A stretch of DNA of 64,000 bases, taken from NCBI RefSeq assembly GCF_024460775.1, contig NZ_JANFYZ010000002.1, positions 30,954 through 94,953 on the forward strand, given 5' to 3'. Source of the DNA: Desulfovibrio desulfuricans. GTDB lineage: Bacteria > Desulfobacterota > Desulfovibrionia > Desulfovibrionales > Desulfovibrionaceae. Position numbers and translations under genes: made by a program. Positions 25,740-60,401 of this stretch are shown piece after piece; within the stretch, counting starts at the first letter, position 1, and each line of letters begins with the position of its first letter. The notes beneath the pieces were generated by a model. That model ran no database searches. It was not told the DNA's origin and saw only the letters and a list, made by a program, of their open reading frames with translations.

Positions 25740-25906
25740 GCTGCGCTCCCTGGTATTTTTGTGTTCATCCGCCAAGTATGCCTTCTTGAAGGTAAAAGGT
25801 CAAAATGTGGCATATTGACGACTGAACCATTATAATGTGCAATGCCGAACTGGTGTAACGGGTTTTGCCGTCAGCGCAGGGTGCTGAAAAAATTAAGGAG
25901 ACGACC

Positions 25907-26608
25907 ATGATTGCGCGCCGTAAATGCGATCCGCTTCTTTTTTTGCAGATGTTGGTGCTGGCCTTGGGAATGCTGTTTCCTTGGCACGCGCAGGCGGCCA
26001 TGCACGATGGTTTTGTGCATGTCAGCGACAACTGCCAGAATATTATTCAGGAAATACGCTATTTTTCTTCCTATAACTTTGTTGGAGAGCGCATCAACGG
26101 ATATCTTGCGCCCCAGGCAATCTTGACCGAGCCTGCGGCGAATGCTCTGTGTAAGGCCGCAACTACGGCGGAAGAGAAAGGCTATACCCTGAAAATTTAT
26201 GACGCCTACCGCCCCCAGTCAGCAGTGGATCATTTTGTGCGCTGGGGCATGAACGCCGCCGACACCCGCATGAAGACGATTTTTTACCCGCAGGTGGACA
26301 AGGCGCGGGTTTTTGATCTGGGTTATGTTGCCACGCGCTCCGGGCATTCGCGCGGCAGCACGGTAGACCTCACCCTTGTTGACAGGCAGAGCGGCAAAGA
26401 GGTGGACATGGGCACCCCCTTTGACTTTTTTGGCGCGGCCTCGCACCACGGGGCCAAGGGGCTGAGCCCGCAGCAGGAGGCCAACCGGGCTGTGCTTCTG
26501 GGCCTTATGGAGAATGCCGGGTTCAAGCGCTATGAGGAAGAGTGGTGGCACTACACGCTTAAAAATGAGCCTTACACCGATACCTATTTCAATTTTCCGG
26601 TGGAATAA
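25907..26608 (+). CDS. VanX/DdpX-family D-alanyl-D-alanine dipeptidase (peptidase M15D)
   Basis: Signal-like N-terminus. M15D motifs YDAYRP, SGHSRGSTVDLTL (Zn-binding H/D) and EWWHY. AGGAG RBS before ATG at 25907 (ORF opens at 25865). Confidence 0.85.
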   Translation: MIARRKCDPLLFLQMLVLALGMLFPWHAQAAMHDGFVHVSDNCQNIIQEIRYFSSYNFVGERINGYLAPQAILTEPAANALCKAATTAEEKGYTLKIYDAYRPQSAVDHFVRWGMNAADTRMKTIFYPQVDKARVFDLGYVATRSGHSRGSTVDLTLVDRQSGKEVDMGTPFDFFGAASHHGAKGLSPQQEANRAVLLGLMENAGFKRYEEEWWHYTLKNEPYTDTYFNFPVE

Positions 26609-26703
26609 AATGAGGTACAGCGCATAACTACGGTAGATTTCTTCTTTTCATGCATAACCTTGCGGCGTAGCATGCTGGGCAATGTTCCTCGAAAGGATAT
26701 GCC

Positions 26704-27573
26704 GTGAAAGTTGTCGTTTGCGCGAAGAAGGATCTTGCAGGATGTGTCGCCCTTAACAGACTGCTGGCAGCCATTGCCCCCAGGCACGATGTTTTTGTGG
26801 TTCTTTCAGATTACGTGCTGGACGCGGAGTGCAGCAATGCCTATGCGGCAAGCCTTGTGGCCCATGAGCGGAACATGGTGCTTGAGCACATTCTGCCCTG
26901 GCTGGAAGCCCGCTTTCCCGAGGGCAATGAGGCGCAGTGTCAGACCTATGCGGGCCTGAAAAAGCGTTACGGCATTGATATGGAGATGTGGGGGCCCATG
27001 CGGTCGCCAGCCTCCCGGCAAGCCATGCGCGACCTTGCGCCTGACGTTGTCATCTCCTGCCGCTACGACTATGTTATTCCCACTGAAGTTATCGATATGC
27101 CCCGGCTTGGCACCTACGGCATGCATCCCGGCGCGCTGCCTGATCTGCAAGGTTTGTGCAGCCCTTTTCGGGCGATGGAGCATGGCAATGAACGCTCTGG
27201 CTGCACGCTTTTCCACCTTGACGCAGGGCTGGATACCGGCCCCATAGTGGAGATCGGCTGGTGGCCCATCAACTATGACCGCTCCCTGCTGTGGAACTTT
27301 GTGCATACCTATTTTGCGGGTATAGACGCCCTGCTGCGCCATCTGCCGGAACTGGAGGCGGGGCGCGAGCTGACAACCCATGTGCAGAGCAGCGAAGGGC
27401 GAAAATACTTCAGCTATCCCACCGAAGACGAGTTCCGCAGGTTTATCCGGAAGGGCGGGCAAATCGTCCTGCCCGAAGATTATCATGAAGTGCTGTCATG
27501 GTTTCTGCCCGGGGGCCTGGCAGATCCCGCCATGCCCGAACTGCGGGCGCTGGTCAGTTCGCTGGAGTCCTGA
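26704..27573 (+). CDS. Fmt-like formyltransferase (formyl_trans_N + C-terminal domain), GTG start
   Basis: Core SCRYDYVIPTEVIDMPRLGTYGMHPGALPDLQG..TLFHLDAGLDTGPIV matches the N10-formyl-THF-dependent formyltransferase fold (HxSLLPxxRG-like region and DxGxI). AGGA RBS. Confidence 0.75.
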   Translation: MKVVVCAKKDLAGCVALNRLLAAIAPRHDVFVVLSDYVLDAECSNAYAASLVAHERNMVLEHILPWLEARFPEGNEAQCQTYAGLKKRYGIDMEMWGPMRSPASRQAMRDLAPDVVISCRYDYVIPTEVIDMPRLGTYGMHPGALPDLQGLCSPFRAMEHGNERSGCTLFHLDAGLDTGPIVEIGWWPINYDRSLLWNFVHTYFAGIDALLRHLPELEAGRELTTHVQSSEGRKYFSYPTEDEFRRFIRKGGQIVLPEDYHEVLSWFLPGGLADPAMPELRALVSSLES

Positions 27574-29956
27574 GCCGCCACATCAGGTGGAACAGCAAGG
27601 AAAGCGCGCAGACGATGCCGCCCATGAGCAGCAGCGCGCTGGCTGGAGCCATGACGGTTACGGCAATGCCAAACACCACAGGCCCCGCTACCTGCCCCAT
27701 GCGCTCCAGGCCACGGTAAATCGAGGCTGTCTTTTCGCGGCCCAGGGTTTGCGCCGAAGCAAGAGTGAGAACGCAGATCATGGATGCCGGGGCAGCCAGA
27801 CACTGGGCCAGCCCCAGGGAGATGACCGCAGCGGCCGCCCCGGCCATATTTGTAGCCGTTGCCGCAATGAGCAGCGTAATGCCGGAGAGCAGGCCCGTGA
27901 GCGTCAGGAACAGGGATTTGTCTTTTCTGCGATCTATCCATTTGCCAAGCAATGGCCCCGCCGTAATAAAACACAGGCCGTAGAGCATGAATATGCGGCC
28001 GATATCCGACTGATCCACATGGGCGTTTGCCAGCCTCAACGGCAGCAGATAGTGCAAAAATCCGGTCAGACACATGGCGGCGGGTATGCCCACCAGCCAG
28101 AGTATCATGTGCATGCGCGGGTCTTGCAGCAATTGCATGCAGCCTGAAAACATGTGCCCCTGTGCGGCTGTTTGCGCACCAGACCCCTGACAGGCCGCGT
28201 TGCCGGCACTGCCTGCTGCGGCCTCCGCGGGTTCCTTGCCAAGCATCACGGTGAACAGAGCCAGCAAGATGGTGCAGGCCCCGGTCGCCAGCACCGCCTG
28301 AAACGAAACATGATCCGCCAGCATGGCCCCCGCTGCTGAGCCGCAGATGCTGCCGGAAAATATGCCTGCGAATACGCTGGTGAGCCCTGCCCCGGCATTG
28401 GCCTTGCCCAGTGTGCCGATCTGCCCGGCCATGAGCACAAGGCCAAAGCCGAAGCCTGTGGCAACGCGCCCCAGAATGAGCAGAAGCAGGCTGTTGGCCA
28501 TGCCGCCCATCATCAGCCCCACGGCCGCAGCCAGAGTGCCTGCGGCAAAGACCTTTCGCCAGCCGTAGCGCAATGAAAATCCGCCGGAAAACAGCAGGGC
28601 AAAGCCCGCGCTGACCATCTCTGCCGAGATGGGCAGGCCAATGGCCACATCACGGCTCAGGCCCATGAACGGCTCGTACAGCTGGCGGGCCAGCAGGGGA
28701 ATGAACGATATGCCCATGTCGTAGCCCAAAAAGAACACAAAGCCCGCTGCCCGCAAGGCCTGCACGGCGAGGGAGTGGTGGCTGCTTCCAAGGGCGTTCG
28801 CCGCAGCATCTGGCGGGAGGTTGCGTTGCGCGATAAGGCCCAGCAGTTTTGAGAGTTCCAGCAGCAGCAAAAAGCTGATGAGCAGTGAGGCCCCAAGGTC
28901 AAGGGCCAGCGCCGATATGCGGGTTGTGATGGCCTGGGGCTGCACGGCCAGTTGCAGGCGCAGCACTTCCTGTTTTTGGCGGAAGCGGCTGGGCCAGTAG
29001 GTGCTCAGTGATTTTTCAACTGTGAGCGCCGGGTCGGGCACGTGCCCGGCAGAGGCCACAGACTTGCCTTCAGGCGTCAGCAGCTGCGCGCCCGCAAGCT
29101 CGCTGTTGGCCGCAAGCAGCTGCTCAAGCGCCTGATCCTTGCCGCGCAGGCTGGCGATATCCACGCCTTTGTGGATAAGGTATTCAAAATCGCGCCCTGT
29201 GCCCTCGGCGAGGATGTCTGCCTTGGTGCGTACGGCCTGCTTGACGAAGGTATCGAACAGCACCAGCGTGCCGCAGGCGTAGAGCAATTGCGATGTGCCG
29301 ATGATGACGAGCAGCATTCTGGTCATGCCCGAAAGGCTTGTGCCCACAGCGCGTTGCCCGGTCAAGAGGCCAAGACGCCCGGCCAGAATCAGCCCCGCCA
29401 CAAGGCAGGCCGCTGCCAGCAACAGGGATGACAGCCGCAGAAAATCTTCTGTAGCCGCATTGATGGGCTTGCCGTCAATGTCCACCAGCAGTTGGCCCAC
29501 AGGCGTTTTGTTCCTCAGGGGGATGCTCAGGCGATAACCATCAGCGGTTTTGATCGCGCCTTGCGGCCCGTCTTTGCCCTCTCTGGTTTGGGATGCCGCA
29601 CCGGGGGGCAACGTGCTATCAGCCTTTGAATCTTGGGCAGGCTGTTCATAGAGAGTGGAACCCCTGGCATCAATAATGGTCACACGCCTGATGCCCGCCG
29701 CGCTCTGACCCAGTTCCGCCAGCATCTCGTCCATTCCGGCGAACGAAGCCAGCGGTTTGCCAAAGCGCATGCCGCGTTCAATATCACGGGCCAGACGTTC
29801 AGCACCGCTGCGATAGCCGGAAAGCACCATGTCGGTTGCCAGCGTATTCAGCGTGGAAACCGAGAGCAGCACGTTAAAGCCCAGGGTGACCAGCAGGACT
29901 CCAAGCCCGAGCAGCAGGGCATTGATGCGCAGTTTGCGCGTGGCGCGGATAAGCAC
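27554..29956 (-). CDS. MFS transporter (12-TM, C-terminal ~420 aa) fused to a ~330-aa N-terminal extracytoplasmic/sensor-like domain bounded by two TM helices
   Basis: C-terminal half shows alternating hydrophobic helices and MFS signature-like loops (GRVATGFGFG, LGREKTASIYRGLERMGQVAGP). N-terminal TM1 LLLGLGVLLVTLGF and TM2 after a long soluble segment. Overlaps the formyltransferase 3-prime end by 20 nt (convergent). Confidence 0.7.
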   Translation of the reverse strand: MLIRATRKLRINALLLGLGVLLVTLGFNVLLSVSTLNTLATDMVLSGYRSGAERLARDIERGMRFGKPLASFAGMDEMLAELGQSAAGIRRVTIIDARGSTLYEQPAQDSKADSTLPPGAASQTREGKDGPQGAIKTADGYRLSIPLRNKTPVGQLLVDIDGKPINAATEDFLRLSSLLLAAACLVAGLILAGRLGLLTGQRAVGTSLSGMTRMLLVIIGTSQLLYACGTLVLFDTFVKQAVRTKADILAEGTGRDFEYLIHKGVDIASLRGKDQALEQLLAANSELAGAQLLTPEGKSVASAGHVPDPALTVEKSLSTYWPSRFRQKQEVLRLQLAVQPQAITTRISALALDLGASLLISFLLLLELSKLLGLIAQRNLPPDAAANALGSSHHSLAVQALRAAGFVFFLGYDMGISFIPLLARQLYEPFMGLSRDVAIGLPISAEMVSAGFALLFSGGFSLRYGWRKVFAAGTLAAAVGLMMGGMANSLLLLILGRVATGFGFGLVLMAGQIGTLGKANAGAGLTSVFAGIFSGSICGSAAGAMLADHVSFQAVLATGACTILLALFTVMLGKEPAEAAAGSAGNAACQGSGAQTAAQGHMFSGCMQLLQDPRMHMILWLVGIPAAMCLTGFLHYLLPLRLANAHVDQSDIGRIFMLYGLCFITAGPLLGKWIDRRKDKSLFLTLTGLLSGITLLIAATATNMAGAAAAVISLGLAQCLAAPASMICVLTLASAQTLGREKTASIYRGLERMGQVAGPVVFGIAVTVMAPASALLLMGGIVCALSLLFHLMWRLRTPAN

Positions 29957-29965
29957 GGAAAATCC

Positions 29966-31111
29966 TTAGGGTGTACCGGGGTGCGGCTGGCTGATGGTTT
30001 CGTGCAGTTCGTCCGCCGTTACCAGCACGTCAAAGGGAAAATCAAAGCCGATGGCCTTGGCGGTGGCAAGGTTCAGGGCGATGGAAGGCTCGGACTGGTC
30101 AAGCATGGGCAGGGTGCGCGGCTGCGTGCCGCCCAGTATGGCGTGGGCCTGCCCGGCAAGAGCTATGCCGCTGGGGCCGAAATTCCAGGTGGAAAAGCCC
30201 ATGAGCGCTCCGGCTTTGACATATTCCGACCCATCACGCGCAAAGGTGGGGATTTTCCACTGATTCAGCTTTTGCAGCAGCGGGGCCATGCCCTCGCCGC
30301 CGATATCAAAGCAGTTCAGCGGGCCGATAAAAAAGGCGTCCATGCCCTGTTTGCGCAGGTCGTCCAGCCCCTTGCGGCATTCCTCAGCACTTTCGGCGGA
30401 GGAAAGGCCATCGTAGAGTACAAGGGAAAATCCCAGCTCCGAGGCAATGGCCTGGGCATCGCCAAGTGCGGCGTACACGCGGCCTTCCTGACTGTTCTGG
30501 AACATGATGCCCATTTTGTGAAAGCGCACCACATCGTAAAAAACGCGGAACATGGAAGACCAGCGGTCAACTTCCACCCGGCAGGTGAAGTTGTCCACGC
30601 CGGAATCCTGCGCGCTTTTGACAACCCCGGCAGCCACAGGGTCAGCCATGCCCATGCCCAGAATGGGCAAACGGCCATCGTTGACTGCCAGCAGCGCCTT
30701 GACCGCCGCCGTGCCCATGCCCACCACAAGGTCGAGATCCTTGCGCTGCAAAAGCTGTTTTGCCATTTCAGGCAGGCGGCGCATCTGCGCTGGTTCCCAG
30801 CCGGGGCTGAAGCGCGCGTCAGATGGATATTCGCAGCGTATGTCGTCATACTTGCCCATACCATCGCGAAAGGCGTTCCAGGTGTTGTCAAACAGCCAGA
30901 ACGGCCCGGCTTCGAGATAGCCAATGCGTTTTACGGGCGGATTGGCGCAGGCGGGCTGGCAGAAGACGAAAAACAGGCCGCCCAGTAAAAGCATGGTAAG
31001 AATCAGCGTGGTCAGGCGCTGCAGAAATGCGCTTGCATGGGGCCGTTGCCCCTGGTTTTTCTGCGGGCGCAGCAAAAGACATGGGCCATTGGCTGTAATT
31101 GGAAAAAGCAT
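29966..31111 (-). CDS. periplasmic ABC-type substrate-binding protein, PF04392 (ABC_sub_bind/BMP-like) family; start uncertain
   Basis: DLVVGMGTAAVKALLAVNDGRLPILGMGMADPVAAGVV matches the PF04392 core. Signal-anchor LLTMLLLGGLFFVFCQPACA. Confidence 0.7.
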   Translation of the reverse strand: MLFPITANGPCLLLRPQKNQGQRPHASAFLQRLTTLILTMLLLGGLFFVFCQPACANPPVKRIGYLEAGPFWLFDNTWNAFRDGMGKYDDIRCEYPSDARFSPGWEPAQMRRLPEMAKQLLQRKDLDLVVGMGTAAVKALLAVNDGRLPILGMGMADPVAAGVVKSAQDSGVDNFTCRVEVDRWSSMFRVFYDVVRFHKMGIMFQNSQEGRVYAALGDAQAIASELGFSLVLYDGLSSAESAEECRKGLDDLRKQGMDAFFIGPLNCFDIGGEGMAPLLQKLNQWKIPTFARDGSEYVKAGALMGFSTWNFGPSGIALAGQAHAILGGTQPRTLPMLDQSEPSIALNLATAKAIGFDFPFDVLVTADELHETISQPHPGTP

Positions 31112-31165
31112 GCCTACTGCGCCGCGTGAAAGAGTGTGTTCATCAGAACCGTATCCCTATGCAGC

Positions 31166-31333
31166 CTAGCAGCGAGTGGGCTTTTTGGGGCTCGAGGCTA
31201 TGACAAGCAGCAGCCCCACCAGGGGGGTCAGCAGAACACTGGCAAAAAAATTGCCCCAGAATCCCAGCCGGGAATTGATGCCCAAAAACCCGACCAGCAG
31301 GCTCATGCCCAGTATGAGAGCGAACAGTAGCAC
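31166..31333 (-). CDS. small hydrophobic protein (55 aa, two predicted TM helices); below the ORF-track length cutoff
   Basis: GGGAGG RBS 7 nt upstream of a GTG start. Translation MLLFALILGMSLLVGFLGINSRLGFWGNFFASVLLTPLVGLLLVIASSPKKPTRC. Lies between the SPFH and SBP genes on the same strand. Confidence 0.35.
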   Translation of the reverse strand: MLLFALILGMSLLVGFLGINSRLGFWGNFFASVLLTPLVGLLLVIASSPKKPTRC

Positions 31334-31345
31334 AGCGGGCCTCCC

Positions 31346-34823: not shown

Positions 34824-35106
34824 GTGGTTCTGTGGCCCCGGTGTTCAGGTGCGCCGCGCATTACAGCATGCCCGGCGGTCTTGTATGCGCCCCTTTGCAG
34901 TGCAGGGGGCCTGGTAAATCAAGCGTCAACGCTGCCGCAGCGGCAGCCACGGCCTTTGCCAAGGCCTGAAAGTTATGCTCTGTCAGCCAATTTGGGCATA
35001 AGCGCGGCTGGGTACGGCGAGCGTAATAGCCAACACTTCCGTAAGGGCCAGTTGCCCGGCCCATACGGAAGGCTCCGATTCCCGAAACCGCCAGAGGTCG
35101 CCGATA

Positions 35107-35730: not shown

Positions 35731-35770
35731 GTGCAACCTCGTTGTGGCCGGTTTCAGGGTTACGGGAATT

Positions 35771-55000: not shown

Positions 55001-56853
55001 GCAAGCCAACGCAGCCGCTGCAACAAACCGAGGAAACAACGCCAGTTCTGGATAAGTACCCCGTGGGCAACGAGCAGCTTGCCATCCTGTATGCCGACAT
55101 GGTCAGCGAGGGTGATCTGGGTTTCAACCTGCCAGCATTCCTTGTGATGCCGCCTGATGCGGACGCGGCGCGGCTTGAAAAGGCCCTTGCCCAGATTGTG
55201 GAACGGCACGAGGCGTTGCGCACGAGCTTCTGCGATTTTGAGGCCGAGCGTCCGGCCATGATTATTCATCCCTTTACGGGATTTACCCTTGAAGAAAGGC
55301 GCATCCCAGATCTTGCGCACAAGGATGACATTATCCGGCCCTTTAACCTGCGGAACGAAACGGGCTTTCGCGCCTGCCTGCTTGTGACCGATGCGGGTGA
55401 AAAGGTGTTGTTCATTGATCTGCACCACGCCCTTGGGGACGGCAGAACCATGTCGCTGCTCAATGTGGAGCTGTACCGCCTGTATCACGGGCTGGAGCTT
55501 GCGCCTGTGACCGCGCAGATGAAGGATATTGCCTGGCGGCAGGTCATGCATCCCGATGCCGAAGCCGCAGCCTACTGGCAGAATATTTACAAGGACGAAT
55601 TGCCCCGGTTGGACCTGCCCGCATCGCATCCCCGCCCCCGGGTTCATACCGGCAGGGGCGGCACGTATGAATTTGATCTCGCACCGGAGCTTGTACAGGC
55701 CATCAAGAGCCTGGCCCGCAGGGAAGGGCTGACCAACTATCAGGTTTCGCTCTGCGCCTGGAGCCTGCTGGCGCAGGCCTACACCGGCTCGCAGGATATC
55801 GTGGTCGCTGTTTCGATGGACGCGCGGGGCGAACATCTCAACACCGCGGGCATGCTGGCGTCAGTGCTGCCGCTGCGTTTCAGCGTAGATCCCGACAAGC
55901 CTCTTTCCGCCCTGCTGCGCGCCACGCGGCAGGTAAGCAACGAAGGCATGCGCCACCGTGCCTACATTCTGAACAGCCTGCTGGCGGACCTCCGGCAGAC
56001 CGCATGGCCGGACAGATCGCCCCTGTCGGAGATCATTCTCTCATACATGAACTTTGAATTTGCCGCCGAAGGGCAGGGCCTGTTTGAATCCCTGCGGTTC
56101 AGCAAATTTTCCAGCAAGACGGATCTTTCCATCTTTGTGAGCGATATTGGCGAGAGCATAAGCATTGCCATTGAATACTACGCAGATCTGTTCAGTGAGG
56201 CCGATGTGCTGCGCATGGCCCGCGACTATGTGCGCATGCTTGAACTCATGACCTCCGCGCCTGTGGACGCGCCGCTGCGCTTTATGCCCACTGATTTGCC
56301 GTGCGCCGCTGGCGGCGCGGTAAGCCTCGAGCAGTGCGAAGCCTTGGCCCCGGCAGCCTTGCAACAGGGCATTGAAGCCTTGGCTGCGGGCAAGGGAGCA
56401 TCTGCCGAAGCGGTGCTGCTGACGGTGTTTGCCGTACTGATGGGCAAGGTGACCCAGCAGGAGCAATTTGTGGTGGAAGTGCCGCCAGAGTGCGCCATCA
56501 GGTTCAGCATTGACGACAATATGGAGTTTGATGAACTGCTGGCCTTCACGCAAAAGAGGCTGACGGAAAAGGCTGGTATGGGGGGGGCTGACCACGGTGA
56601 TTCTGGCCCTGCCGATACTGACATGCCCGCCATGCAAAGCGGCCTGCGTTTGGGCTTTGCTTTGGCAGAGGGGAGTATCTCCACACCTGCGCAGGGCAAG
56701 GGTTACGGCCTGTTCTGCTCGGTTCGGGAACAGGAGGAAGGTCTGGCCCTTTATTTTGCGTATGATCCGCAGCAGGTTGGCGCGGAAACAGCTCAGGACT
56801 GGCTGACCTATTACGGGAATTTTCTTGAAGGCATAATTGAAGGGGCGGCATGA
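40033..56853 (+). CDS. hybrid NRPS / AT-less PKS megasynthase (~5606 aa): Cstarter-A-T, C-T-E, C-T, C-A-T, KS-DH-KR-ACP, C, plus a ~170-aa C-terminal tail
   Basis: Single uninterrupted ORF (opens at GTG 40021; ATG 40033 has a GGGGGA RBS). Domain motifs were read directly (see domain entries below). The stop overlaps the next NRPS start (ATGATGA). Confidence 0.9.
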   Translation: MAKIVPLTGCQKELWLSAKAALSDYAETSIRGCYHIDALLDPDLLRQAIKRTLHFTPLPAASLCQDEAEPYFLVGEPQEPDFRVLDAATQPDPDAAADRMIDEFFEEPVENPLMRYALVITGEASCIVAMKCSHVVLDGLAFFFHIAVIADVYTALARGETPELGEPCSCEEAYLEDQAHCASPRFQKDMTFWQEHLARLPEKRLLRALPGRPDVLGESRHQKFVLSEKTSSETSALIAAHKVSPAVFFTGIYALIVSFMSGEKDIVALAPVAYGERKVLYRRQGAMMSLPPLLVNVAAHDTFAGLLEAVSAQNGSFYRHVRTPYQLAARQLEGKNFAFLADTFVNFLPNTPPGTPEFPIVEAEQRHSAKEPILFGTLVMQELRSGCFSLTVRNSRNHLSDRDVERFVARVESVVAQLAAGIEPPQLDYLLEEEKRELAQWRSGPARKYDIRSLPELFDAAADAFAGRVAVRDEWGNSLSYAQVRENSLRCASWLAGQGVARGGIVAVAAQRTANLPEVVLGIQRLGAVYLPIDPKAAPDRMAYIVEDAGADITLDLADLAYRQAPISPLPQAPRAEDGAYLIYTSGSTGKPKGVLAPHGGFANMIQGQIELFGVQADDHVLQFAPPIFDASLSEMFMALLAGAALYPVSDQCRNAPWTLRQYMIDNDISIVTLPPSYLNLFEGEPFPGLRVLITAGEPPVVGDALHYAKGLRYFNAYGPTETCVCAAMKEVSPFEPQPIGVGSPIPNVTLSIRNAEGRELPAGMAGELWIGGASLALGYHNKPEMTEQRFVHLPQEGNARFYASGDLALWSDKGEILLLGRADDQVKIRGNRVELAEVACLLESCESVSQAAVLAVKDAGGQASLAAFFVLRPGASIEAVVSWSRTSLPPYMVPSAWHVLEAMPLAPTGKIDRKALQSLARRGDAQGGSVRKPHAGLLEIFERVLGRAYDPEKSFFAQGGNSLNAMSLLHAIRKTFDVDISFRSFVSCETLFDVESLLGGVRAESALAGIESAPLSTGQFRIWAYQQVNEGSIDYNMPLLLELRGDKTADFLEGLRRAANAQELFHCTVAGDIDNPHFARGKGEVYLCSVAIADAREAAVFFDQQIHTPFDLRVEPPVRLVAAVLPQCVQVLVLVHHVAGDGETLEILLQNALRYLRGEPPACGLLAVQEAFCRRQAAYAASPACADDAAYWQEVLTPPVPTVNPATGAASRKGAMIGVDLDAETAQGFEILARNSGASVLACFVALAGRALCRRFDRKELLLGVPMGLRETQDEFCAAGFYVNTVPLRVRLDGLEDSAAVADAARQMRQAIEHSRYCAADIVPEFLATHAHFEPVGVPGLELNRLELELRASKLTASFTLVTGTASRIVLEYDAGCIADAPALLDDLAQSMRRACEGLARRNPRQVLADAWREILHPGSSSAVQEESDFFRDGGDSIKAIQITGILRRSGITALSAPDFLRKPHFGDLCTLLESADSELSAAQAMDYTPVAPGEQVPLLPFARYFLGAHPSHWRQFFMLLPLEIRSDVPTASIEAWLQTLPENHESLRMAFAPDHAVLLAEPQKITLHCRDFADTVEQTSLLRKAVAEITEGLDAACGKTLGAMLARQGERRFLLLVGHHLALDALSLETLRQGLLHYCRTGKAQCEAHGLALRAREVERLRAAGVFPSEEQRALWRAACAEPCEPLRALLPQSRDRGRDSAASRARLSAQLEGFRQEYSTDAKADLLAALACALHAQGQKAAVRVTLESHGRDELLSGFDASRSLGWFTAVCPMPLGPSLNYAQAREALGPWLAQHFSPENCNAYGYLRQENPAEFGYAAQIAFNYLGRLTGQPDEEASLMLSALAPGLIPELVHADMEADAPLELSVFFDQQGILHLGAWFSPQCLPQDWVSGLLQSWRAALKTLPAYLPQQTLDAIFAACGCHAEDVERIAQPDAGHAPLLYQSLLAQSGVYTQQVEFHFRGPVDVFALMRAWEALTARHESLRSLFPMPVEGEFYRVVLLKGRTSLEFHDFSHLPEAEAEAEAQALLRAERQRGFDVQRGPLLRARFFRRGADRVVMSWCFHHLLMDGWCMGVLLRELFALAGAKGGPENSRLPEPFPLETYSRWRAQFDERAARAYWAGLLQDFSGPTGVELAQPAPRAAAPGEFDEPLTVELELDAALSASLQELAKTEAVTLSALVQMLWAIVLGNANNGCRDVVFGVVTSGRPAELAGIESAVGLFIQTLPLRARWTASDSLGALLAQVKEQNLQQMRYGYVPLSTLGRNLLDHLMVFENYPVDTSFDHNRVELRDMRGFEKLPYALGISVIPGVNLRFRFLYDPERLPEERALALRNGLHAVLAAAASGRARTCLALEEAANNAGAGAERPAGEHGGAELGGAENAPGDAAAATGQAQVPQGPDVAALAETVRAAYAAVLGCPVDSVDADFFQLGGHSLIAMSLLSQLSKSLSVAVGIEDVMGYPSPRALAARIGSLAKPDAVIPRVEELAAYPLSPAQQRIWFLQKLHEGGQVYVIPFAARLRGPVDAVALQKALTLLEERHDALRLRVALDAPEQSLAPAGGLRLESYDTPLTDAAYLGMSLPLGPERPLVRVALFRQEDGSHALVFCFHHIIFDGWSAEVITRELNEAYGAVLQGRVPQWRPLDLDFASYALWESQREAEGLEQICSDLAPLPERLRLPLDYPRPAVQRFEGAVQSFDLGLERSHALKDWAQRAGVTVFPVLLALVDAFLLRHTGQDDIIVGCPAANREHEQVQGVVGLFVNTLAVRARMNAQGGFAELAGTVDAAFRKSLAVQSCPFEKVIEAVGVERNAARNPVFDVFAALEDASWNNFGRAPLCMEPLPLPHQSSKFDLSFYFKERADGGYTVDVEYCTELFSPQTVRRMAERLLTLADAVLADDAKPLAELDILPARERAELASFNDTAEPLDVAADMDSRFRAQAARTPHAPAVLDAAGTAVSYTQFNAQVDAVCAWLQGQGVERGQYVCMCFERSPAMLACIFAVLRLGAVYVPLAATLPAERMRSVFEDLGQCVVLCEARFAEAFRKNLQDGQNGQYGQRVLSPDFEALVAGAQVPGAVPHYEADPLPPDSPAYVIFTSGSTGRPKGVPIGHASVANRLLWMQSRFPIGQGDVVLQKTTITFDVSVWELFWWSWQGAGIALLEPNAEKNPALIVQAIESRRVTVLHFVPSMLRAFLDHLEAHPGDVRRLRSLRYVFTSGEALPRELVARWNALTHADQLQVELHNLYGPTEATVDVSWQPCLNTPPHAVPIGRPVSNTRLYVLDACKNPVPLGVTGEIYISGIQVARGYLNRPDLTAQRFMDDPFAHGSRMYRTGDLGRWLTDGSIEYLGRNDDQVKIRGYRIELGEVEAALGRCRGVSQAVVRMGRIGEYAALEAFLLPQGGARLDLAGIRAELAALLPNYMCPSRFFVVQDIPLSPSGKADRKRLQGQPLLAGGERSAVPEHAPDALQSGPQSGLESGLSPTLIEAVREVWRQVMPEVEAGSDLGFFDAGGNSLLLVRLHTLLDKQWPGVFTLAGLFSESTIRAQATFIARVQQVGSTVATRHATTAPIAIIGMAVRLGDYADVQSFWRDLARGADKNIPMPEKRRGETRQIFDAVGLAFDKARLREAAYLSDISSFDYRRFGLSPNDASLLDPAQRVFLETALRALDDAGYGGSALENADVGVFVGASPVRLFQTAVTRAFPDLAEQTYLLNVPSNVLARLSYMKNWHGPAASVDTACSSVLAALHQACRSLHEGECAVALVGGAHVIDLPVKADAAFAIESVSGRTRTFDAEAEGVGAGEGAAVFLLKPLDAALRDHDAIHAVIPGSAVNQDGKSSSMAAPNPEAQAEVIDRAARNAGVSLADIQFFEAHGTATVLGDPVEIEGLRRAFARQGARREHKALIGSVKGNLGHLDAAAGAAGLAKAVLCLENGLVPPQPHFERPNPHIDFEAAPVRVAQMLEPLPPQERPWRCGVSSFGLSGVNTHVIVAEHQAQPLPQDDGHWQCVVFSAPDETSLQDYAKAVAAAVARNEGWPLHAIAATLMTGRDALPVRAALVARSRQELLEQLEAGLTGVAAGNAARHDSRSSMENPLPGAFFASQEAAQAAASAYLAGARIAWPAEKPVYRVHLPAAPLAAATLWPRFAAHFLSEPVITPAGKAFALAVDRPDFWPAAEHRLEGTPLLVGMSLLDCLGWIGGAAPLSLHDLRWRKPVTCGPGRRVVLLAQEQGDALAVELHHFEPADHKAGETSTKWQATGTWSVAASGLVRGGTARPAALNLATVRESLREIAQQDTPEDSPLMVSGRWQCRKALWVAEDGNTLLAELCLPEAYRADFNTFRWHPAMMDIAASLALRDAYGFVPAGCRMARLHSPLTAQAFALVRITDRQQGMIVADCAVTDASGQIVAELEGMTFMALRKGQAVGKSGPDTPQIHSLHSDQPQSELYAIGWKQADLEGSVAGPQNIILLGGQGSLLGETLEPLAHAHRPLPLLADEARALAREILAGPTDHLLWLPASQSAGQHGGQNDTWPLCALLQEICSGGLRRPLRVTVVGRGAFVAGGSTPEPHQECLPQGALYMGPLLCLPWEEPRISCAYVELEEQNAASVAAFAASLGLVDGPYVAAHDGTVRVRELVKLPSAPALTTMPVITKNGCVVITGGLGGMGQTLARQIYERHGAHVVLLHRSSQLPPHALEGVPFVAFRCDVADAAQVEEVFAKIRREVGPVQGVIHTAGVAGRGYLLTSDRQGYESVLAPKVAGTWNLHKATLGDDLAFFVLASSRTALVGAPGQSDYTAANAFLNAFARYRRRLGLPALSINWNTWSGVGMAVREGLGNGPEAANMLAPQQALAVLEAALASGEELVAVGMTGESVEDFALNGLPGSELPGSMLGSASISSSAAKGNATQAQPGVNADSLDGAALLEIIRDCLGYDRPLTREDDFFDLGGDSIAATRIVNRLDKEAGLALAVADLLESDTLGDIVDCALASCKPTQPLQQTEETTPVLDKYPVGNEQLAILYADMVSEGDLGFNLPAFLVMPPDADAARLEKALAQIVERHEALRTSFCDFEAERPAMIIHPFTGFTLEERRIPDLAHKDDIIRPFNLRNETGFRACLLVTDAGEKVLFIDLHHALGDGRTMSLLNVELYRLYHGLELAPVTAQMKDIAWRQVMHPDAEAAAYWQNIYKDELPRLDLPASHPRPRVHTGRGGTYEFDLAPELVQAIKSLARREGLTNYQVSLCAWSLLAQAYTGSQDIVVAVSMDARGEHLNTAGMLASVLPLRFSVDPDKPLSALLRATRQVSNEGMRHRAYILNSLLADLRQTAWPDRSPLSEIILSYMNFEFAAEGQGLFESLRFSKFSSKTDLSIFVSDIGESISIAIEYYADLFSEADVLRMARDYVRMLELMTSAPVDAPLRFMPTDLPCAAGGAVSLEQCEALAPAALQQGIEALAAGKGASAEAVLLTVFAVLMGKVTQQEQFVVEVPPECAIRFSIDDNMEFDELLAFTQKRLTEKAGMGGADHGDSGPADTDMPAMQSGLRLGFALAEGSISTPAQGKGYGLFCSVREQEEGLALYFAYDPQQVGAETAQDWLTYYGNFLEGIIEGAA
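40036..41330 (+). other. NRPS condensation domain, N-terminal (starter-type position)
   Basis: HHxxxDG core as SHVVLDGLAFF at ~40423-40455. First domain of the protein, preceding A1. Confidence 0.7.
41380..42790 (+). other. NRPS adenylation domain A1
   Basis: A3 LIYTSGSTGKPKGV (41776-41817), A5 NAYGPTETC, A7 YASGDLA, A8 GRADDQVKIRGNRVEL, A10 PLAPTGKIDRKAL. Confidence 0.85.
42830..43030 (+). other. thiolation (PCP) domain T1
   Basis: FFAQGGNSLNAMSL with phosphopantetheine-attachment serine. Confidence 0.8.
43070..44290 (+). other. condensation domain C2
   Basis: C1-like LSTGQFRIWAYQQ and HHVAGDGETL at ~43441. Confidence 0.75.
44290..44480 (+). other. thiolation domain T2 (directly after C2, no A domain)
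   Basis: DFFRDGGDSIKAIQITGIL. Confidence 0.75.
44500..45770 (+). other. epimerization-type domain (E), C-domain superfamily
   Basis: Position after a T domain. E1-like PLLPFARYFLG (cf. PxxPxQxWF) and E2-like HHLALDALSLE (HHxxxDxxS) at ~44887. Confidence 0.5.
45800..47090 (+). other. condensation domain C4
   Basis: HHLLMDGWCMGVLL at ~46231. C-domain length and secondary motifs (YPLS/NYLGRL-type). Confidence 0.7.
47250..47460 (+). other. thiolation domain T3 (after Ala/Gly-rich linker; no A domain in this module)
   Basis: FFQLGGHSLIAMSLLSQL at ~47329. Confidence 0.8.
47490..48790 (+). other. condensation domain C5
   Basis: YPLSPAQQRIWFLQ (C1) and HHIIFDGWS (C3) at ~47866. Confidence 0.8.
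48800..50380 (+). other. adenylation domain A2
   Basis: A3 VIFTSGSTGRPKGV (49321-49359), A5 NLYGPTEAT, A7 YRTGDLG, A8 GRNDDQVKIRGYRIELGEVE, A10 LSPSGKADRKRL. Confidence 0.85.
50480..50700 (+). other. thiolation domain T4
   Basis: FFDAGGNSLLLVRLH at ~50557. Confidence 0.8.
50737..52030 (+). other. ketosynthase (KS) domain
   Basis: PIAIIGMAVRL. Active-site DTACSSVLAAL (Cys). Catalytic His motifs EAHGTATVLGDPVE and GSVKGNLGHLDAAAGAAG. Confidence 0.9.
52470..53300 (+). other. dehydratase-like (DH) domain; no AT domain between KS and DH
   Basis: HxxxGxxxxP-like HRLEGTPLLVGMSLLD (~52563) and downstream D-motif region DIAASLALRD. No GHSxG acyltransferase motif anywhere in the 52030-53990 interdomain region. 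Confidence 0.5.
53990..54540 (+). other. ketoreductase (KR) domain
   Basis: Rossmann motif VVITGGLGGMGQTLAR, then the SDR catalytic region ending ...NWNTWSGVGMA. Confidence 0.8.
54790..54990 (+). other. acyl carrier protein (ACP/T) domain
   Basis: FFDLGGDSIAATRIVNRL. Confidence 0.8.
55030..56330 (+). other. condensation domain C6 (pairs with the A-T-TE of the next protein)
   Basis: HHALGDGRTM at ~55423. C6/C7-like SKTDLSIFV and IEYYADLF. Confidence 0.8.
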
Positions 56854-59800
56854 TGAAGCTATCGGATTTTTCCTTTGCCGCTCCTGCAAAAAATTCTGCA
56901 AGGCCTGAATCTGCCGGTATTTCAGGTTCTGGCCCGCAGACAGCGGGCACCACGCAGGCAGAGCAGGACTTTGTCAGCCTTGAGCACCTGTTCCGCAGCA
57001 TTGCCGACGCAAGGCCAGAGGTCCAAGCCCTGACCGGGGGCGGCCTGGGGCTGACCTTCAGGGAACTGGACGTTCTTTCGGAGCGTATTGCCCGTTTTAT
57101 CCTTACGCAGGGGTATGGGCACGAGGCTGTGGTGGGCGTGCTGTGTGCGCGCGGCGCGGTGTATCTGGCTGCGGCCCTTGGCGTCATGCGGGCCGGGGCG
57201 GTGTATCTGCCCGTGGAGCGCGAGCAGCCGCAAAGCCGCAAAGAGGCCATGCTGCGGCCCGCAAGCCTGATTATTGCCGACAGCGCCTGCCTGCGCGAGG
57301 CCGAGTATTTTCATTACAGAAATCCCGGCATCCGGCACGTACTCTGCCTTGATGCGCAGGAGTATGACGATGCCGCCGAAAAAGGCACAGGCCTTGTAAG
57401 CACGGAATACTGGGAGCAGGTGGCGCAGGCGGGCAGCGACATGGGCTGGAAGAGCGATTTTGACGCCGCCCCCTGCCCGCAAAGCGAGCTTGCTGCCTTG
57501 GCCGCTGCCGTGCTTGAAAAATGCGGGCTGGCTCGCAAAGCAGAGGCTTACAGTGCAAAGGCATTTGCGGCAGGCCGCAAGGTGCTGGATGTGGGCAGCG
57601 GGTCTGGCTGCGTGGCGCAGGCGCTTGCCGGGGCCGCGCAGGAATATGCGGCCGTGGATCTGGCCCGCAATGAACTCAGCCGCCTTGCCGGTTTTGACGC
57701 TGCCGCCAGGGTGACGCCGTATCGTATGGAGGCGGCGGACATACATTTTCTTGAAGGCCAGACCTTTGACGTGGTGGTCATGAACGGCGTGGTGGAAAAT
57801 TTCCCCGGCTACAATTATCTGCGCAGGGTGCTGAATCACGCCGTACAGATGCTCACGCCAGAAGGTCTGGTTTTTGTGGGTGCTGTGCGCGATCTGGATT
57901 GCCGCAATGATCTGCGGGCAGCCTTGCAGGCCCATGCCCTTGCCACCGGCGATCAAACCGGCCTGCTGCGGCTTGATGCCTCTGCCGAGCTGTTTGTTCC
58001 CCGGCAGTTTTTTATGGAGTGGGCGGCGCGCTGCCCTGTGCCGGTGGAAGTGACGTTCTCCCCCTGCGGTCTGGGGCAAAACTCTAGCCAGAGCGCGGGG
58101 CAGACCTGCCCGGAGAGCGAAAGCCAGCATGGAGTGCAGGCCTTCCGCTATGATGTGGTCATCCGCCCCGGCGGCAGCCGTCCTCAGGTTCCGGTTTCGC
58201 TCTCGCGTTTTGGCGCGCAGCATCTGCCGCCTGCGGGCGGGCAAGCCCTGCCCCCATGCGATCCCGCCCAGGCTGCCTATATCGTCTATACCAGCGGTTC
58301 AACGGGCACTCCCAAGGGGGTGGTGGTAGAGCACCGCAACCTCATGCACATTTTGCGCGCCCTGCGGCCCTATGCGGCGGGCTGCGAGAGGGTGGGGCTG
58401 GTTGCGCCCCTGTCGTTTGACGCTTCTGTGCAGCAGTTGGCCGTGTCTGTCTTCAGCGGCAAAAGCCTGCATGTGCTGTCAGACGAAGAACGCAAGAACC
58501 CCTCGCTTTTTTGCGCCTGCGCGCGTGAGCGCGGGCTTGACCTGTGCGACATGACACCCGCGTTTTTCAACGTGCTTACAGACTGGCTTGCCGGGCAGCG
58601 CCAGCCGTTGCCGCTCAAGGCGTTGCTGCTGGCGGGCGAGGTGCTGCGGCCCGATGTTATCCGCAAATTTTACGCCATCCCCGGCAACGAGGGCGTGGTG
58701 CTGTTCAATGTGTACGGCCCCACGGAATGCACGGTGGACAGCAGCGCCTTTCGCATAGATGTGGGCAACCATCAGGATTTTACCGCCTATCCCATTGGCA
58801 GGCCTCTTGAAGGCGTGCGCATCTGCGCGATGGACAAAAATTGTCAGGAGTTGCCCGATTCCGTCACTGGCGAACTGTGGATTTTTGGCGATGGCGTGTC
58901 GCGCGGCTACCTGAACAACGCCAGCCCCGGTGCGTTTGTGGAAAAAAACGGCCAGCCCTGCTATCGCACGGGTGACAACGGTTATGTGCAAAATGGCCTT
59001 GTTTTTTACCGTGGACGCGAAGACCAGCAGGTGAAGATACGCGGCAACCGGGTGGAGCTTGGCGAGGTGGAAAAAGCCGTTGCGGGTTTTCCCGGCGTGC
59101 GTCAGGTGGCGGTGGTGGCGGATACATTTCGCGCCGGGGAGGAAAAGACCCTTGCGGCCTATGTGGTGGGCACTATCGATATGGCCGTGCTGCGCGGGTA
59201 TCTTGAGCAACACCTGCCGCCGTACTGCGTGCCCGCTTATTTTGTCCCCATGATGGAACTGCCGTTTTCGCTCAACCGCAAGATAGACAAAAAGGCTCTG
59301 CCGTCACCCCTGGGCGGGGTGGAAATTCAGCGTGGGCGCATGCCTGCCGGGCCTGTGGAAGAAAAACTGGCCGAGATATGGAAGCGCCTGCTGGGCGTTG
59401 ATATTACCGATGCCGATGCTGGTTTCTTCAGTCTGGGAGGTCACAGCATTCTTTCCATCAGGCTTATTGCCATGATTGAAAAGGAAATGGGCGTGCATGT
59501 GGCTGTGAACGAGCTGGTCACGCATTCAAGCATCGCGCAGCTTGCGGCCCTGCTGGCCGGAAAGACCGAAAAGCGCGAAAGCCCTGTTATCCAACTGCAA
59601 CACTGCGAGGGCGGCAAGAACCTTGTGCTGTTTCACCCTGTTGGCGGCAGCGTGTTCTGCTACAGCGACCTCGCGCGCCTGCTTGGCGGCAAATATACGG
59701 TCTACGCTGTTGAGGCGGCGGGATTCAGTCAGCGCCGCACATCGCTTACCACAGAGCTGCACACGGTTGAAAGTCTGTCGGAGTATTATCTGGACGAAAT

Positions 59801-60401
59801 GCTCAAGGTCGAGAGCCGGGATATCATCTGGGGCGGCTGGAGTTTCGGCGGCCTGCTGGCCTATGAATGCTCCCGGCGGTATGCGGCGATGGGCAACCGC
59901 AGCGAGCCTGTCATCATTCTCGATACCGTGGCCGACAATACCCGCGCAAAACAGATGGCGGCCAAGGATGACATCGAACTCTTGCAGCTCATTTTGCAGC
60001 AAGGTATGGCCTTTGACCCCGTAAAGCTGCGCGCCATGCCGCGTGAGCAGCAACTGGGCTATCTTGTGGAGTGCGGGGAGAAAAGCGGATTGTTGCCTGC
60101 CGGGTTCAGCGCCGTGCAGATGGACAACCTGCTGCTGACCTATCGCGGCAATACCCTGGCGGCTGCACGCTATGAGCGGCCAAGCCCTTCCGACTGCAAT
60201 CTGTTGCTGGTGCGCGCGCTGGATTTTGCAAGCAACCCGCAGATAATAATGAATGACGACTATCAGGGTTGGGGCCGCTTTTTGAAAAAGGAAAACATCT
60301 CGCTGCGCTGGACGCAAGGCACCCATGAAACCATGCTTTCTGCTGGCCTTGCCGCAAATGTGGCCCAGCTCATACTGGAATATCTTGAATGTGAAAAATA
60401 G
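56850..60401 (+). CDS. NRPS termination module: adenylation domain interrupted by a SAM-dependent methyltransferase (between A2 and A3), T domain, thioesterase (TE)
   Basis: ATG overlaps the stop of the upstream megasynthase (ATGATGA). A1 LTFRELD, A2 MRAGAVYLPVE, MT motif I VLDVGSGSGCVAQAL, A3 AYIVYTSGSTGTPKGV, A8 GREDQQVKIRGNRVELGEVE, A10 NRKIDKKAL, T FFSLGGHSILSIRL, TE GWSFGG (GxSxG). Confidence 0.9.
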   Translation: MMKLSDFSFAAPAKNSARPESAGISGSGPQTAGTTQAEQDFVSLEHLFRSIADARPEVQALTGGGLGLTFRELDVLSERIARFILTQGYGHEAVVGVLCARGAVYLAAALGVMRAGAVYLPVEREQPQSRKEAMLRPASLIIADSACLREAEYFHYRNPGIRHVLCLDAQEYDDAAEKGTGLVSTEYWEQVAQAGSDMGWKSDFDAAPCPQSELAALAAAVLEKCGLARKAEAYSAKAFAAGRKVLDVGSGSGCVAQALAGAAQEYAAVDLARNELSRLAGFDAAARVTPYRMEAADIHFLEGQTFDVVVMNGVVENFPGYNYLRRVLNHAVQMLTPEGLVFVGAVRDLDCRNDLRAALQAHALATGDQTGLLRLDASAELFVPRQFFMEWAARCPVPVEVTFSPCGLGQNSSQSAGQTCPESESQHGVQAFRYDVVIRPGGSRPQVPVSLSRFGAQHLPPAGGQALPPCDPAQAAYIVYTSGSTGTPKGVVVEHRNLMHILRALRPYAAGCERVGLVAPLSFDASVQQLAVSVFSGKSLHVLSDEERKNPSLFCACARERGLDLCDMTPAFFNVLTDWLAGQRQPLPLKALLLAGEVLRPDVIRKFYAIPGNEGVVLFNVYGPTECTVDSSAFRIDVGNHQDFTAYPIGRPLEGVRICAMDKNCQELPDSVTGELWIFGDGVSRGYLNNASPGAFVEKNGQPCYRTGDNGYVQNGLVFYRGREDQQVKIRGNRVELGEVEKAVAGFPGVRQVAVVADTFRAGEEKTLAAYVVGTIDMAVLRGYLEQHLPPYCVPAYFVPMMELPFSLNRKIDKKALPSPLGGVEIQRGRMPAGPVEEKLAEIWKRLLGVDITDADAGFFSLGGHSILSIRLIAMIEKEMGVHVAVNELVTHSSIAQLAALLAGKTEKRESPVIQLQHCEGGKNLVLFHPVGGSVFCYSDLARLLGGKYTVYAVEAAGFSQRRTSLTTELHTVESLSEYYLDEMLKVESRDIIWGGWSFGGLLAYECSRRYAAMGNRSEPVIILDTVADNTRAKQMAAKDDIELLQLILQQGMAFDPVKLRAMPREQQLGYLVECGEKSGLLPAGFSAVQMDNLLLTYRGNTLAAARYERPSPSDCNLLLVRALDFASNPQIIMNDDYQGWGRFLKKENISLRWTQGTHETMLSAGLAANVAQLILEYLECEK
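57420..58060 (+). other. embedded class I SAM-dependent methyltransferase domain inside the A domain
   Basis: Motif I VLDVGSGSGCV (57583-57612), post-I acidic residue (AAVDLA), motif II-like VVVMNGVVENFP, motif III-like LTPEGLVFVG. Located between A2 (LPVE) and A3 (YTSGSTG). Confidence 0.7.
59340..59560 (+). other. thiolation domain (terminal T)
   Basis: FFSLGGHSILSIRLIAMIEKE. Confidence 0.8.
59600..60398 (+). other. type I thioesterase (TE) release domain
   Basis: LVLFHPVGGSVFCYSDLA and the nucleophile motif GWSFGG. alpha/beta-hydrolase length. Confidence 0.8.

Follow-up and report, generated by a model that had tools for sequence, protein, structure and literature searches.

A widespread, uncharacterised nonlinear NRPS/trans-AT PKS gene cluster of Desulfovibrio desulfuricans related to the thalassospiramide synthetases

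A 64,000-nucleotide stretch of Desulfovibrio desulfuricans DNA (RefSeq assembly GCF_024460775.1, contig NZ_JANFYZ010000002.1, forward-strand positions 30,954 to 94,953) contains a large biosynthetic gene cluster. This whole stretch is referred to below as the window, and coordinates are window positions unless another locus is named. The cluster occupies about 26.7-60.4 kb of the window (∼34 kb), and its reading frames are intact. It is a widespread, uncharacterised nonlinear assembly line that combines nonribosomal peptide synthetase (NRPS) modules with a trans-acyltransferase (trans-AT) polyketide synthase (PKS) module and is related to the thalassospiramide synthetases. This description is better than that of a rare, strain-specific island. 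Judging from the protein sequences, we give a probability of roughly 0.7 to the reading that this is a thalassospiramide-type line whose product is most likely an N-acylated short peptide with a serine-derived vinylogous (α,β-unsaturated γ-amino) unit.

The core of the cluster is two large open reading frames (ORFs) on the forward strand. The megasynthase gene extends from 40021 or 40033 to 56853 and encodes 5606-5610 residues (5606 from the ATG). The gene for the terminal NRPS (56850-60401, 1183 residues) begins within the end of the megasynthase gene, its start at 56850 overlapping the stop at 56853. A Pfam scan of the two proteins detected seven Condensation stretches, three AMP-binding domains, PP-binding domains, the N- and C-terminal parts of a ketosynthase (KS), PS-DH, a ketoreductase (KR), a Thioesterase and a methyltransferase (MT) inside the last adenylation (A) domain. 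With C for condensation, T for peptidyl carrier, E for epimerization, DH for dehydratase, ACP for acyl carrier protein and TE for thioesterase, the domain order is Cstarter-A-T / C-T-E / C-T / C-A(Ser)-T / KS-DH-KR-ACP / C + A(MT)-T-TE. A first-pass annotation of the window had described the same pair of proteins, down to the interrupted A domain and the TE, and the ORFs and Pfam matches bear it out. The modules are as follows.

40033-41352, forward: module 1, starter-type C1 (SHVVLDG), from Pfam Condensation and the motif; best PDB matches 7C1H, 7C1K, 7C1P and CDA-C1 4JN3
41404-43032, forward: A1 (DASTIAAVCK, Tyr-like) and carrier T1, from Pfam, motifs and code extraction
43045-45822, forward: A-less module 2, C2 (HHVAGDG)-T2-E (HHLALDALS, FNYLG), from Pfam and motifs
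45874-47457, forward: A-less module 3, C4 (HHLLMDG)-T3; C4 aligns to the post-E C domain of PRK05691
47500-50691, forward: module 4, C5-A2 (DVWHFSLVDK, Ser)-T4, from Pfam and the code
50740-54987, forward: PKS module 5, KS-KS/AT linker-DH-KR-ACP, no AT, from Pfam and motifs
55051-56853, forward: C6 (HHALGDG) and a conserved tail of ∼200 residues, from Pfam Condensation
56850-60401, forward: terminal NRPS, A3 (DAQDLAVVDK) with the MT between motifs a2 and a3, then T and TE (GWSFG), from Pfam, motifs and the code

The core motifs of a modular type I NRPS are all present, namely the C, A and T motifs (HHxxxDG, A3/A8/A10 and GGxS) and a releasing TE. C or E motifs lie at megasynthase residues 130, 1137, 1621, 2068, 2613 and 5131, FFxxGGxS is kept in all six carriers, and every catalytic C, E, KS, DH, T and TE motif is intact. 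The MT motif VLDVGSGSG is at residue 245 of the terminal NRPS. The E domain had bacitracin synthase 3 and PvdL among its top PDB matches, followed by the E domains of the tyrocidine and gramicidin synthetases (Tyc/Grs), and matched TIGR01720 weakly. The specificity codes were read on the GrsA reference, for which the procedure reproduces DAWTIAAICK.

The most unusual feature of the line, overlooked by the first-pass annotation, is that two modules have no A domain. A combined Pfam and motif search found no A motifs between megasynthase residues 1000 and 2940. The line is therefore of the nonlinear type, with three A domains for five peptidyl carriers and one ACP in place of one A domain per carrier. 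No stand-alone A gene was found in the window or in the inspected gene contexts of relatives.

The PKS module is of the trans-AT type. Its KS has an intact Cys-His-His triad (DTACSS, EAHGTAT and GNLGH), and between KS and DH there is solely a RhiE-like/CurL-like KS/AT linker remnant with no embedded AT. Pfam gave no Acyl_transf_1 match, and no AT was found in the megasynthase or elsewhere in the 64-kb window. The first-pass annotation had likewise described the PKS as AT-less. Discrete AT genes occur in variants of the cluster from Imhoffiella and Rhodocyclaceae, directly after the terminal NRPS gene. A tblastn search with these ATs found nothing in the window (E ≥ 0.8). In other variants, from Desulfomicrobium, Nitratidesulfovibrio and Rhodocyclaceae, a gene for a protein of the β-lactamase fold is translationally coupled to the terminal NRPS gene. 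The discrete AT and/or β-lactamase-fold genes of these variants lie at L095 13459-14382, L103 13619-15918, L096 13398-14537 and L104 13473-14672 (the loci compared carry the prefix L). The β-lactamase-fold gene was also sought in the window and is absent from it.

Among characterised systems, the nearest relative found was Ttm (TtmA/TtmB), the thalassospiramide synthetase of Tistrella mobilis. When the A2-T-KS-DH-KR-ACP part of the protein was used as the query against 72,556 plasmids, the clear top match was TMO_RS20815 (5215 residues, 15.6 kb) on plasmid pTM1 of T. mobilis KA081020-065. This gene is followed, across the record origin, by one for a 1166-residue "AMP-binding protein" (TMO_RS31725). 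We equated TMO_RS20815 with ttmA on the basis of strain and the 15.6-kb length, and the pair with ttmA/ttmB. A single high-scoring segment of 2051 residues, with 41.5% identity to TtmA, spans T3-C5-A2-T4-KS-DH and so includes module 4, and KR (37%) and ACP-C6 (31%) follow in the same order. The DH motifs AEHRLEGTPLLVG (His) and HPAMMDIAASL (Asp) match those of Ttm DH4. The best match of C6 was Ttm C5, the C domain after the PKS module (198 bits), and the terminal protein follows directly, there being no carrier after C6. The terminal NRPS is collinear with TMO_RS31725 from end to end, with 34% identity over 1126 residues and the MT inserted at the same point. The core thus has the thalassospiramide-type order, C-A(Ser)-T-KS-DH-KR-T-C followed by a separate A(MT)-T-TE protein. 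Through this homology the line is linked to known chemistry. The relationship to Ttm is a distant one, since no Thalassospira or Tistrella protein was among the best 120 matches to the terminal NRPS.

The tail after C6 (56248-56850, megasynthase residues 5406-5606) is 31-49% conserved in orthologues and shows weak similarity to the C-terminal half of a C domain; a docking function is conceivable, as is an origin from a module since lost.

The cluster is conserved well beyond its host. Orthologous clusters were found in Desulfovibrio, Nitratidesulfovibrio, Humidesulfovibrio, Desulfocurvus, Halodesulfovibrio, Pseudodesulfovibrio and Desulfomicrobium, and also in Magnetospirillum, a Verrucomicrobia metagenome-assembled genome (MAG), Rhodocyclaceae and Imhoffiella. 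A KamA-like gene next to the megasynthase gene (see below) is present in the first six of these Desulfovibrionales genera (all but Desulfomicrobium) and in Magnetospirillum fulvum, and in rearranged form in the Verrucomicrobia MAG. About 100 full-length proteins are related to the terminal A(MT)-T-TE protein, with 36-99% identity; they include proteins from Desulfomicrobium, Rhodocyclaceae, Azospira and Imhoffiella (Chromatiaceae), and none of them bears a product name. D. desulfuricans SFAD67 is among the strains with the cluster. Cluster proteins also recur in public assemblies, in groups of 126 and 355 near-identical sequences. The first-pass annotation had considered well-characterised lines of this kind rare in sulfate reducers and the locus possibly strain-specific; in fact the cluster family is common in Desulfovibrionales and extends beyond them.

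The architecture is kept across genera at 42-61% identity. The A1 code does not vary among 19 orthologous loci; for A3, 88 of 97 proteins have either DAQDLAVVDK or DAQDIGAVDK. Against three orthologues dN/dS was 0.12-0.14, and for the A-less part it was 0.15-0.18. Because of these dN/dS values (0.12-0.18) and the conserved codes, we conclude that the unusual architecture is held by selection and is not decaying.

Mutation and heterologous expression (in Pseudomonas putida) of the thalassospiramide lines Ttc, from Thalassospira sp. CNJ-328, and Ttm have shown that the starter C domain is required for acylation, that A domains load the T domains of other modules, that the lines work without a cognate AT or a stand-alone A gene (the Ttm line uses an AT of primary metabolism), that the single MT is an N-methyltransferase, and that DH4 is functional and acts on the Ser-C2 unit (10.1101/560987). 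The mechanism proposed here is modelled on these results. An Sfp-type phosphopantetheinyl transferase (PPTase) encoded in the cluster would prime the six carriers. The starter C domain would acylate the residue loaded on T1 by A1, which has a Tyr-like code. The C-T-E and C-T modules would be loaded by A domains borrowed within the same enzyme, and the residue on T2 would be epimerised. Serine would be loaded onto T4 by A2. The AT-less KS-DH-KR-ACP module would then add one malonyl unit with the help of an AT encoded elsewhere, probably FabD, and reduction and dehydration of this extension would give a 4-amino-5-hydroxypent-2-enoyl unit. C6 would pass the chain to A(MT)-T-TE, which would add the last, probably N-methylated, residue and release the product. 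A type II TE would edit misprimed carriers, and ABC and major facilitator superfamily (MFS) proteins would export the product. O-methylation, the activity associated with MTs between a2 and a3 of interrupted A domains, was considered for the MT and set aside; the TtcC homologue, at the same position, is an N-methyltransferase. A lipopeptide product, as proposed by the first-pass annotation, is likely because the best solved relatives of C1 are starter C domains: we take 7C1H, 7C1K and 7C1P to be RzmA-Cs and 4JN3 to be CDA-C1, both lipoinitiation starter C domains.

Several observations weigh against this reading. The starter assignment of C1 comes from PDB matches of 52-63 bits, and C1 is 27% identical to Ttm C1. 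Identity to Ttm as a whole is moderate, 31-41%. Nothing in TtmA corresponds to the upstream part C-A-T-C-T-E-C-T, which includes the E domain and the two A-less modules in succession. Conversely, in Ttm the PKS module is separated from the last C domain by a C-T (Val) module that is absent here, and because of this the 12-membered thalassospiramide ring cannot form in the same way. The A3 code is Gln-like, but the homologous Tyr-activating domain of TtmB has the non-canonical code DAIDVGAVGK; the Gln call has been downgraded on this account, and the A3 prediction is weak. The KamA-like protein, the type II TE, the Fmt-like protein and the membrane-protein block described below are encoded here, whereas ttc and ttm have none of them. 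The three A codes give no indication of a β-amino acid, which leaves the KamA product without an assigned entry point. With regard to the accessory genes, ttc and ttm themselves share no flanking genes (10.1101/560987).

The gene adjoining the megasynthase gene is the following.

38659-39891, reverse: KamA-family radical S-adenosylmethionine/pyridoxal phosphate (PLP) 2,3-aminomutase-like protein (TIGR00238); most homologues begin at Met33 (378 residues)

The protein passed the TIGR00238 family model (260.5 bits, cut-off 199.2) and carries the CxxxCxxC motif as CAMHCRHC. It failed the equivalog models for AblA (263 bits, cut-off 525), the arginine enzyme (251, cut-off 600), the glutamate enzyme (241, cut-off 650) and EpmB (240, cut-off 369). 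It resembles lysine 2,3-aminomutase (PDB 2A5H) with a score of 240 bits over ∼310 residues, shares the CxxxCxxC motif and has a candidate PLP-lysine motif, GHDIGK, read by eye. It differs from 2A5H in that the lysine-binding residue D293 is replaced (YQCMPVSRV). D330 of 2A5H also appears to be replaced (FKYIIGHDIGK), in a register of our own that lies past the end of the phmmer alignment, the MAFFT block being partly misaligned. On the equivalog scores and pocket residues we rejected its assignment as a lysine, arginine or glutamate aminomutase or as EpmB. The first-pass assignment to the KamA-type 2,3-aminomutases therefore holds for the family, but the enzyme is not a lysine aminomutase: going by the pocket, the substrate is predicted to be something other than lysine. 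Candidates are an aromatic residue, which would match A1, and glutamine, which would match A3. The pocket motifs are identical in NRPS-linked and unlinked KamA homologues. Genes for ProV-like and polar-amino-acid ABC transporters and RpiR-type regulators are often neighbours of the unlinked homologues, which is not decisive for the substrate. The protein belongs to a separate KamA clade that is widespread in Desulfobacterota and other anaerobes, mostly without an NRPS, and that fits no known equivalog; the homologues without an NRPS (L024-L081) are ∼56-65% identical, typically about 60%.

The KamA gene adjoins the megasynthase gene in 20 of the 80 loci compared, which are all of the loci that contain the megasynthase N-terminus, including that of Magnetospirillum. 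The Verrucomicrobia MAG (L037) differs in having it next to the terminal modules. This linkage is what would be expected of a collinear line dependent on outside enzymes, in which a stand-alone adenylating enzyme loads T2 and/or T3 with a KamA-derived β-amino acid to give one or two mid-chain β-residues; the purifying selection on the A-less part and the lack of a β-amino-acid-like code among the three A domains fit the same explanation. We nevertheless regard it as unlikely, given that no stand-alone A gene was found in the window or in the inspected contexts and that the A-less modules of Ttm are served by in-line A domains, no external A domain being needed in the heterologous host (10.1101/560987). 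In the preferred, nonlinear reading the KamA-like enzyme would supply a β-amino acid other than β-lysine.

The remaining genes of the cluster, all named in the first-pass annotation and confirmed by Pfam, NCBIfam and gene calls, are listed below, together with a 55-residue peptide.

26704-27573, forward: Fmt-like protein of the formyltransferase fold, 289 residues (Pfam Formyl_trans_N), at the left edge of the conserved cluster
27554-29956, reverse: fusion protein of 800 residues, a membrane/periplasmic N-terminal region of ∼400 residues and an MFS transporter (MFS_1 at residues 404-738)
29966-31111, reverse: PF04392 substrate-binding protein, 381 residues (Pfam ABC_sub_bind), 72-75% identical across several genera
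31166-31333, reverse: two-helix membrane peptide, 55 residues (annotated gene call), at the same position in Desulfomicrobium
31346-32656, reverse: SPFH/Band-7 membrane protein, 436 residues (Pfam Band_7)
32653-33144, reverse: exported protein, 163 residues, with a signal-peptide-like N-terminus and six Cys in the mature part
33141-34823, reverse: fused permease/ATPase ABC exporter of the cyclic-peptide exporter type, 560 residues (ABC_tran)
35107-35730, reverse: DUF697 membrane protein, 207 residues as called (Pfam DUF697), near the NRPS also in Desulfomicrobium and Rhodocyclaceae
35771-36904, reverse: second PF04392 substrate-binding protein, 377 residues as called (Pfam ABC_sub_bind)
37186-37929, reverse: Sfp-type 4'-phosphopantetheinyl transferase (Pfam AASDHPPT_N and ACPS)
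37933-38649, reverse: type II (editing) TE (Pfam Thioesterase, full length)

The eight reverse-strand genes from 27554 to 36904, encoding in order of transcription a PF04392 protein, the DUF697 protein, the ABC exporter, the 163-residue protein, the SPFH protein, the 55-residue peptide, the other PF04392 protein and the MFS fusion, form a block that accompanies the NRPS. Most of its proteins are, in several genera, more conserved than the synthetase, at ∼69-82% versus 47-61% over the aligned stretch, with lower values for the DUF697 and MFS proteins. In Desulfomicrobium (L096 14871-23405) the block is collinear but lies downstream of the terminal NRPS gene; there it lacks the 163-residue gene and ends with a homologue of the 800-residue fusion. 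As it is collinear yet on the other side of the cluster, the block is a linked module. The ABC exporter scored 277 bits with TIGR01194, slightly under the cut-off of 286. Residues 1-400 of the fusion protein gave no family match. The 163-residue protein had no Pfam or NCBIfam match; it is 69-72% identical (over ∼85% of its length) in five loci of other genera and 47-49% identical in three more. The 55-residue peptide shares SLLVGFLG...FGFWGNFFAS with Desulfomicrobium and is a real small gene, overlooked by ORF lists with a 100-residue cut-off.

The first-pass annotation had suggested a possibly formylated product. The Fmt-like protein had Met-tRNA formyltransferases as its top PDB matches (51 bits to Fmt 5UAI) and keeps the catalytic His and Asp, but the Asn of NxH is replaced by Gly (TYGMHPGALP), and all NCBIfam equivalog scores were far below their cut-offs. 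N-terminal formylation is unlikely if, as we propose, the starter C domain acylates the N-terminus, and the catalytic Asn is missing.

The conserved block, with its two substrate-binding proteins, PvdE/SyrD-type ABC exporter and MFS protein, would also suit a metallophore that is exported by the ABC and MFS proteins and recaptured via the two PF04392 proteins. C1 and C2 weakly match the C domains of EntF and MxcG, and the A2 code DVWHFSLVDK, which we take to be the serine code of EntF, can be counted on the same side. We consider a metallophore very improbable: genes for ligands of the catechol, hydroxamate, thiazoline or carboxylate type are absent, the block includes no TonB-dependent receptor or importer permease, and the known homologue of the core makes protease inhibitors and not a siderophore. 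The notion that the line is a decaying relic, to which the two A-less modules, the AT-less PKS module and the lack of the AT and β-lactamase-fold genes of other variants might point as lost functions, is highly improbable: both frames (5606 and 1183 residues) are uninterrupted, the motifs of the C, E, KS, DH, T and TE domains are all kept, the same architecture persists across genera under purifying selection, and the Ttm line functions although it lacks the same domains (10.1101/560987).

The left flank of the cluster consists of housekeeping genes (selD, tRNA-Leu, tig, clpP, clpX and lon), next to which lies one further gene.

25865-26608, forward: VanX-like M15 peptidase (Peptidase_M15, 149 bits; VanX model 232 bits, cut-off 320)

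Both this gene and the Fmt-like gene had been placed at the cluster edge. In the more distant loci L092-L094 the Fmt-like gene stays convergent with the MFS gene (66-71% identity), there is no VanX or selD gene, and different, unrelated genes lie upstream. Since the Fmt/MFS adjacency persists there without VanX, we include the Fmt-like gene in the cluster and exclude VanX, which is also absent at the empty site described next.

In a relative with 66% HDOD identity (L100 8321-10912), the order cobU-lon-clpX-clpP-tig-selD is followed by the HDOD and GGDEF/EAL genes with nothing between. In a 75% relative the terminal NRPS gene precedes the HDOD gene, as in the window. The HDOD and GGDEF-EAL genes are assigned to the flank because they adjoin selD at the empty site without the cluster; these c-di-GMP signalling genes, which the first-pass annotation had seen as bracketing the locus, are not part of the conserved cluster. 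The ∼35-kb block is an insertion or relocation relative to the L100 genome, since selD directly abuts HDOD there. The scaffold of L100 bears the same name as that of L092, where the cluster is found in different surroundings, so the two are probably on the same scaffold, though the reported lengths differ (79,400 versus 272,691). In Magnetospirillum a transposase fragment follows KamA at the cluster edge. The proposed synteny break between selD and HDOD is therefore seen in one relative, without making the cluster strain-specific, given its orthologues in many genera. The idea of an acquired locus gains some support from the empty site and the transposase fragment.

The AT-rich brackets proposed earlier are found on one side. 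The right flank is AT-rich (GC 0.46 at 60.0-61.0 kb), and the left flank is housekeeping DNA. A 770-bp AT-rich non-coding spacer (60401-61171, GC ∼0.46) separates the terminal NRPS gene from the HDOD gene; it contained no ORF, no Rfam match and no promoter or terminator signals above chance. Promoter and terminator scans of the divergent intergenic region were likewise at chance level. The sole Rfam match was the tRNA-Leu of the left flank. A second low-GC stretch at 9000-11800 (0.46-0.49) has no connection with the cluster; it contains the gene for a methyl-accepting chemotaxis protein (9987-11738). The selD gene (24681-25739, reverse) has an in-frame TGA at 25704-25706, in the motif AAG*AAK near the N-terminus. 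The mechanically called selD ORF is shortened to 302 residues because of this TGA, and SelD here most likely contains selenocysteine.

No description of the cluster or its product was found in the literature searched, which covered the topics Desulfovibrio/NRPS, aminomutase and glutamate aminomutase, in agreement with the earlier view of the product as undescribed. PMC4306944, PMC8865925, PMC7738495, PMC6712304 and PMC12918008 had no bearing on it. For D. desulfuricans DSM 1926 an entry in Table 2 of a review (PMC8540375) records a biosurfactant of unidentified nature made under anaerobic conditions (1955). It is a possible historical link to a lipopeptide and merely a lead, as nothing ties the biosurfactant to the cluster.

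A fuller picture can be put forward tentatively, although we hold it to be doubtful as a whole. In it the KamA-like enzyme represents an uncharacterised clade of radical SAM 2,3-aminomutases with a non-basic substrate, aromatic or glutamine; its β-amino acid enters via one of the shared A domains or the A-less carriers; the lipopeptide, a Michael acceptor, covalently inhibits cysteine proteases of the host or of competitors; and the SBP (substrate-binding protein)-DUF697-ABC-SPFH-MFS block serves export or self-protection. If this were true, common gut and environmental sulfate reducers would make a lipopeptide that contains a β-amino acid and bears a Michael-acceptor warhead. In the gut, Desulfovibrio of the D. 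desulfuricans group are among the common sulfate reducers. A vinylogous-serine unit such as that of the thalassospiramides leads to the hypothesis that sulfate reducers make a covalent protease inhibitor in anoxia. The thalassospiramide-type line proposed here would also be a second, phylogenetically distant case of the logic of borrowed A domains and no cognate AT, here extended by an E domain and by two A-less modules in a row, and the cluster links this logic to an uncharacterised KamA clade and a membrane-protein block.

Like Ttc and Ttm, the line described here is a nonlinear NRPS with an AT-less KS-DH-KR-T module and no AT or stand-alone A gene in the cluster, and it combines A-less modules with a starter C domain. 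Its Ser A code, DVWHFSLVDK, is identical to that of TtmA, and the KS and DH active-site variants are shared. As in Ttm, the megasynthase ends in a C domain and is followed by a separate A(MT)-T-TE protein of ∼1170 residues with the MT between a2 and a3. Module 1 resembles module 1a of Ttc, a starter C-A(Phe/Tyr)-T. The two systems differ in that there is one ACP here compared with a tandem pair in Ttm, that the terminal A code is DAQDLAVVDK in place of that of TtmB, and that the host is a strict anaerobe, unlike the Ttm and Ttc hosts. The thalassospiramides, marine cyclic lipodepsipeptides, are reported to be nanomolar calpain inhibitors, with the α,β-unsaturated unit proposed as the pharmacophore. 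Barnesin A of Sulfurospirillum barnesii is described as an NRPS-PKS lipodipeptide with a vinylogous arginine that acts as a protease inhibitor. It is far smaller than the product predicted here from six carriers. Set beside it by description alone, the present cluster offers an analogy: in both cases an NRPS-PKS hybrid of an anaerobe is associated with a lipopeptide, here a predicted one, that contains a vinylogous amino acid.

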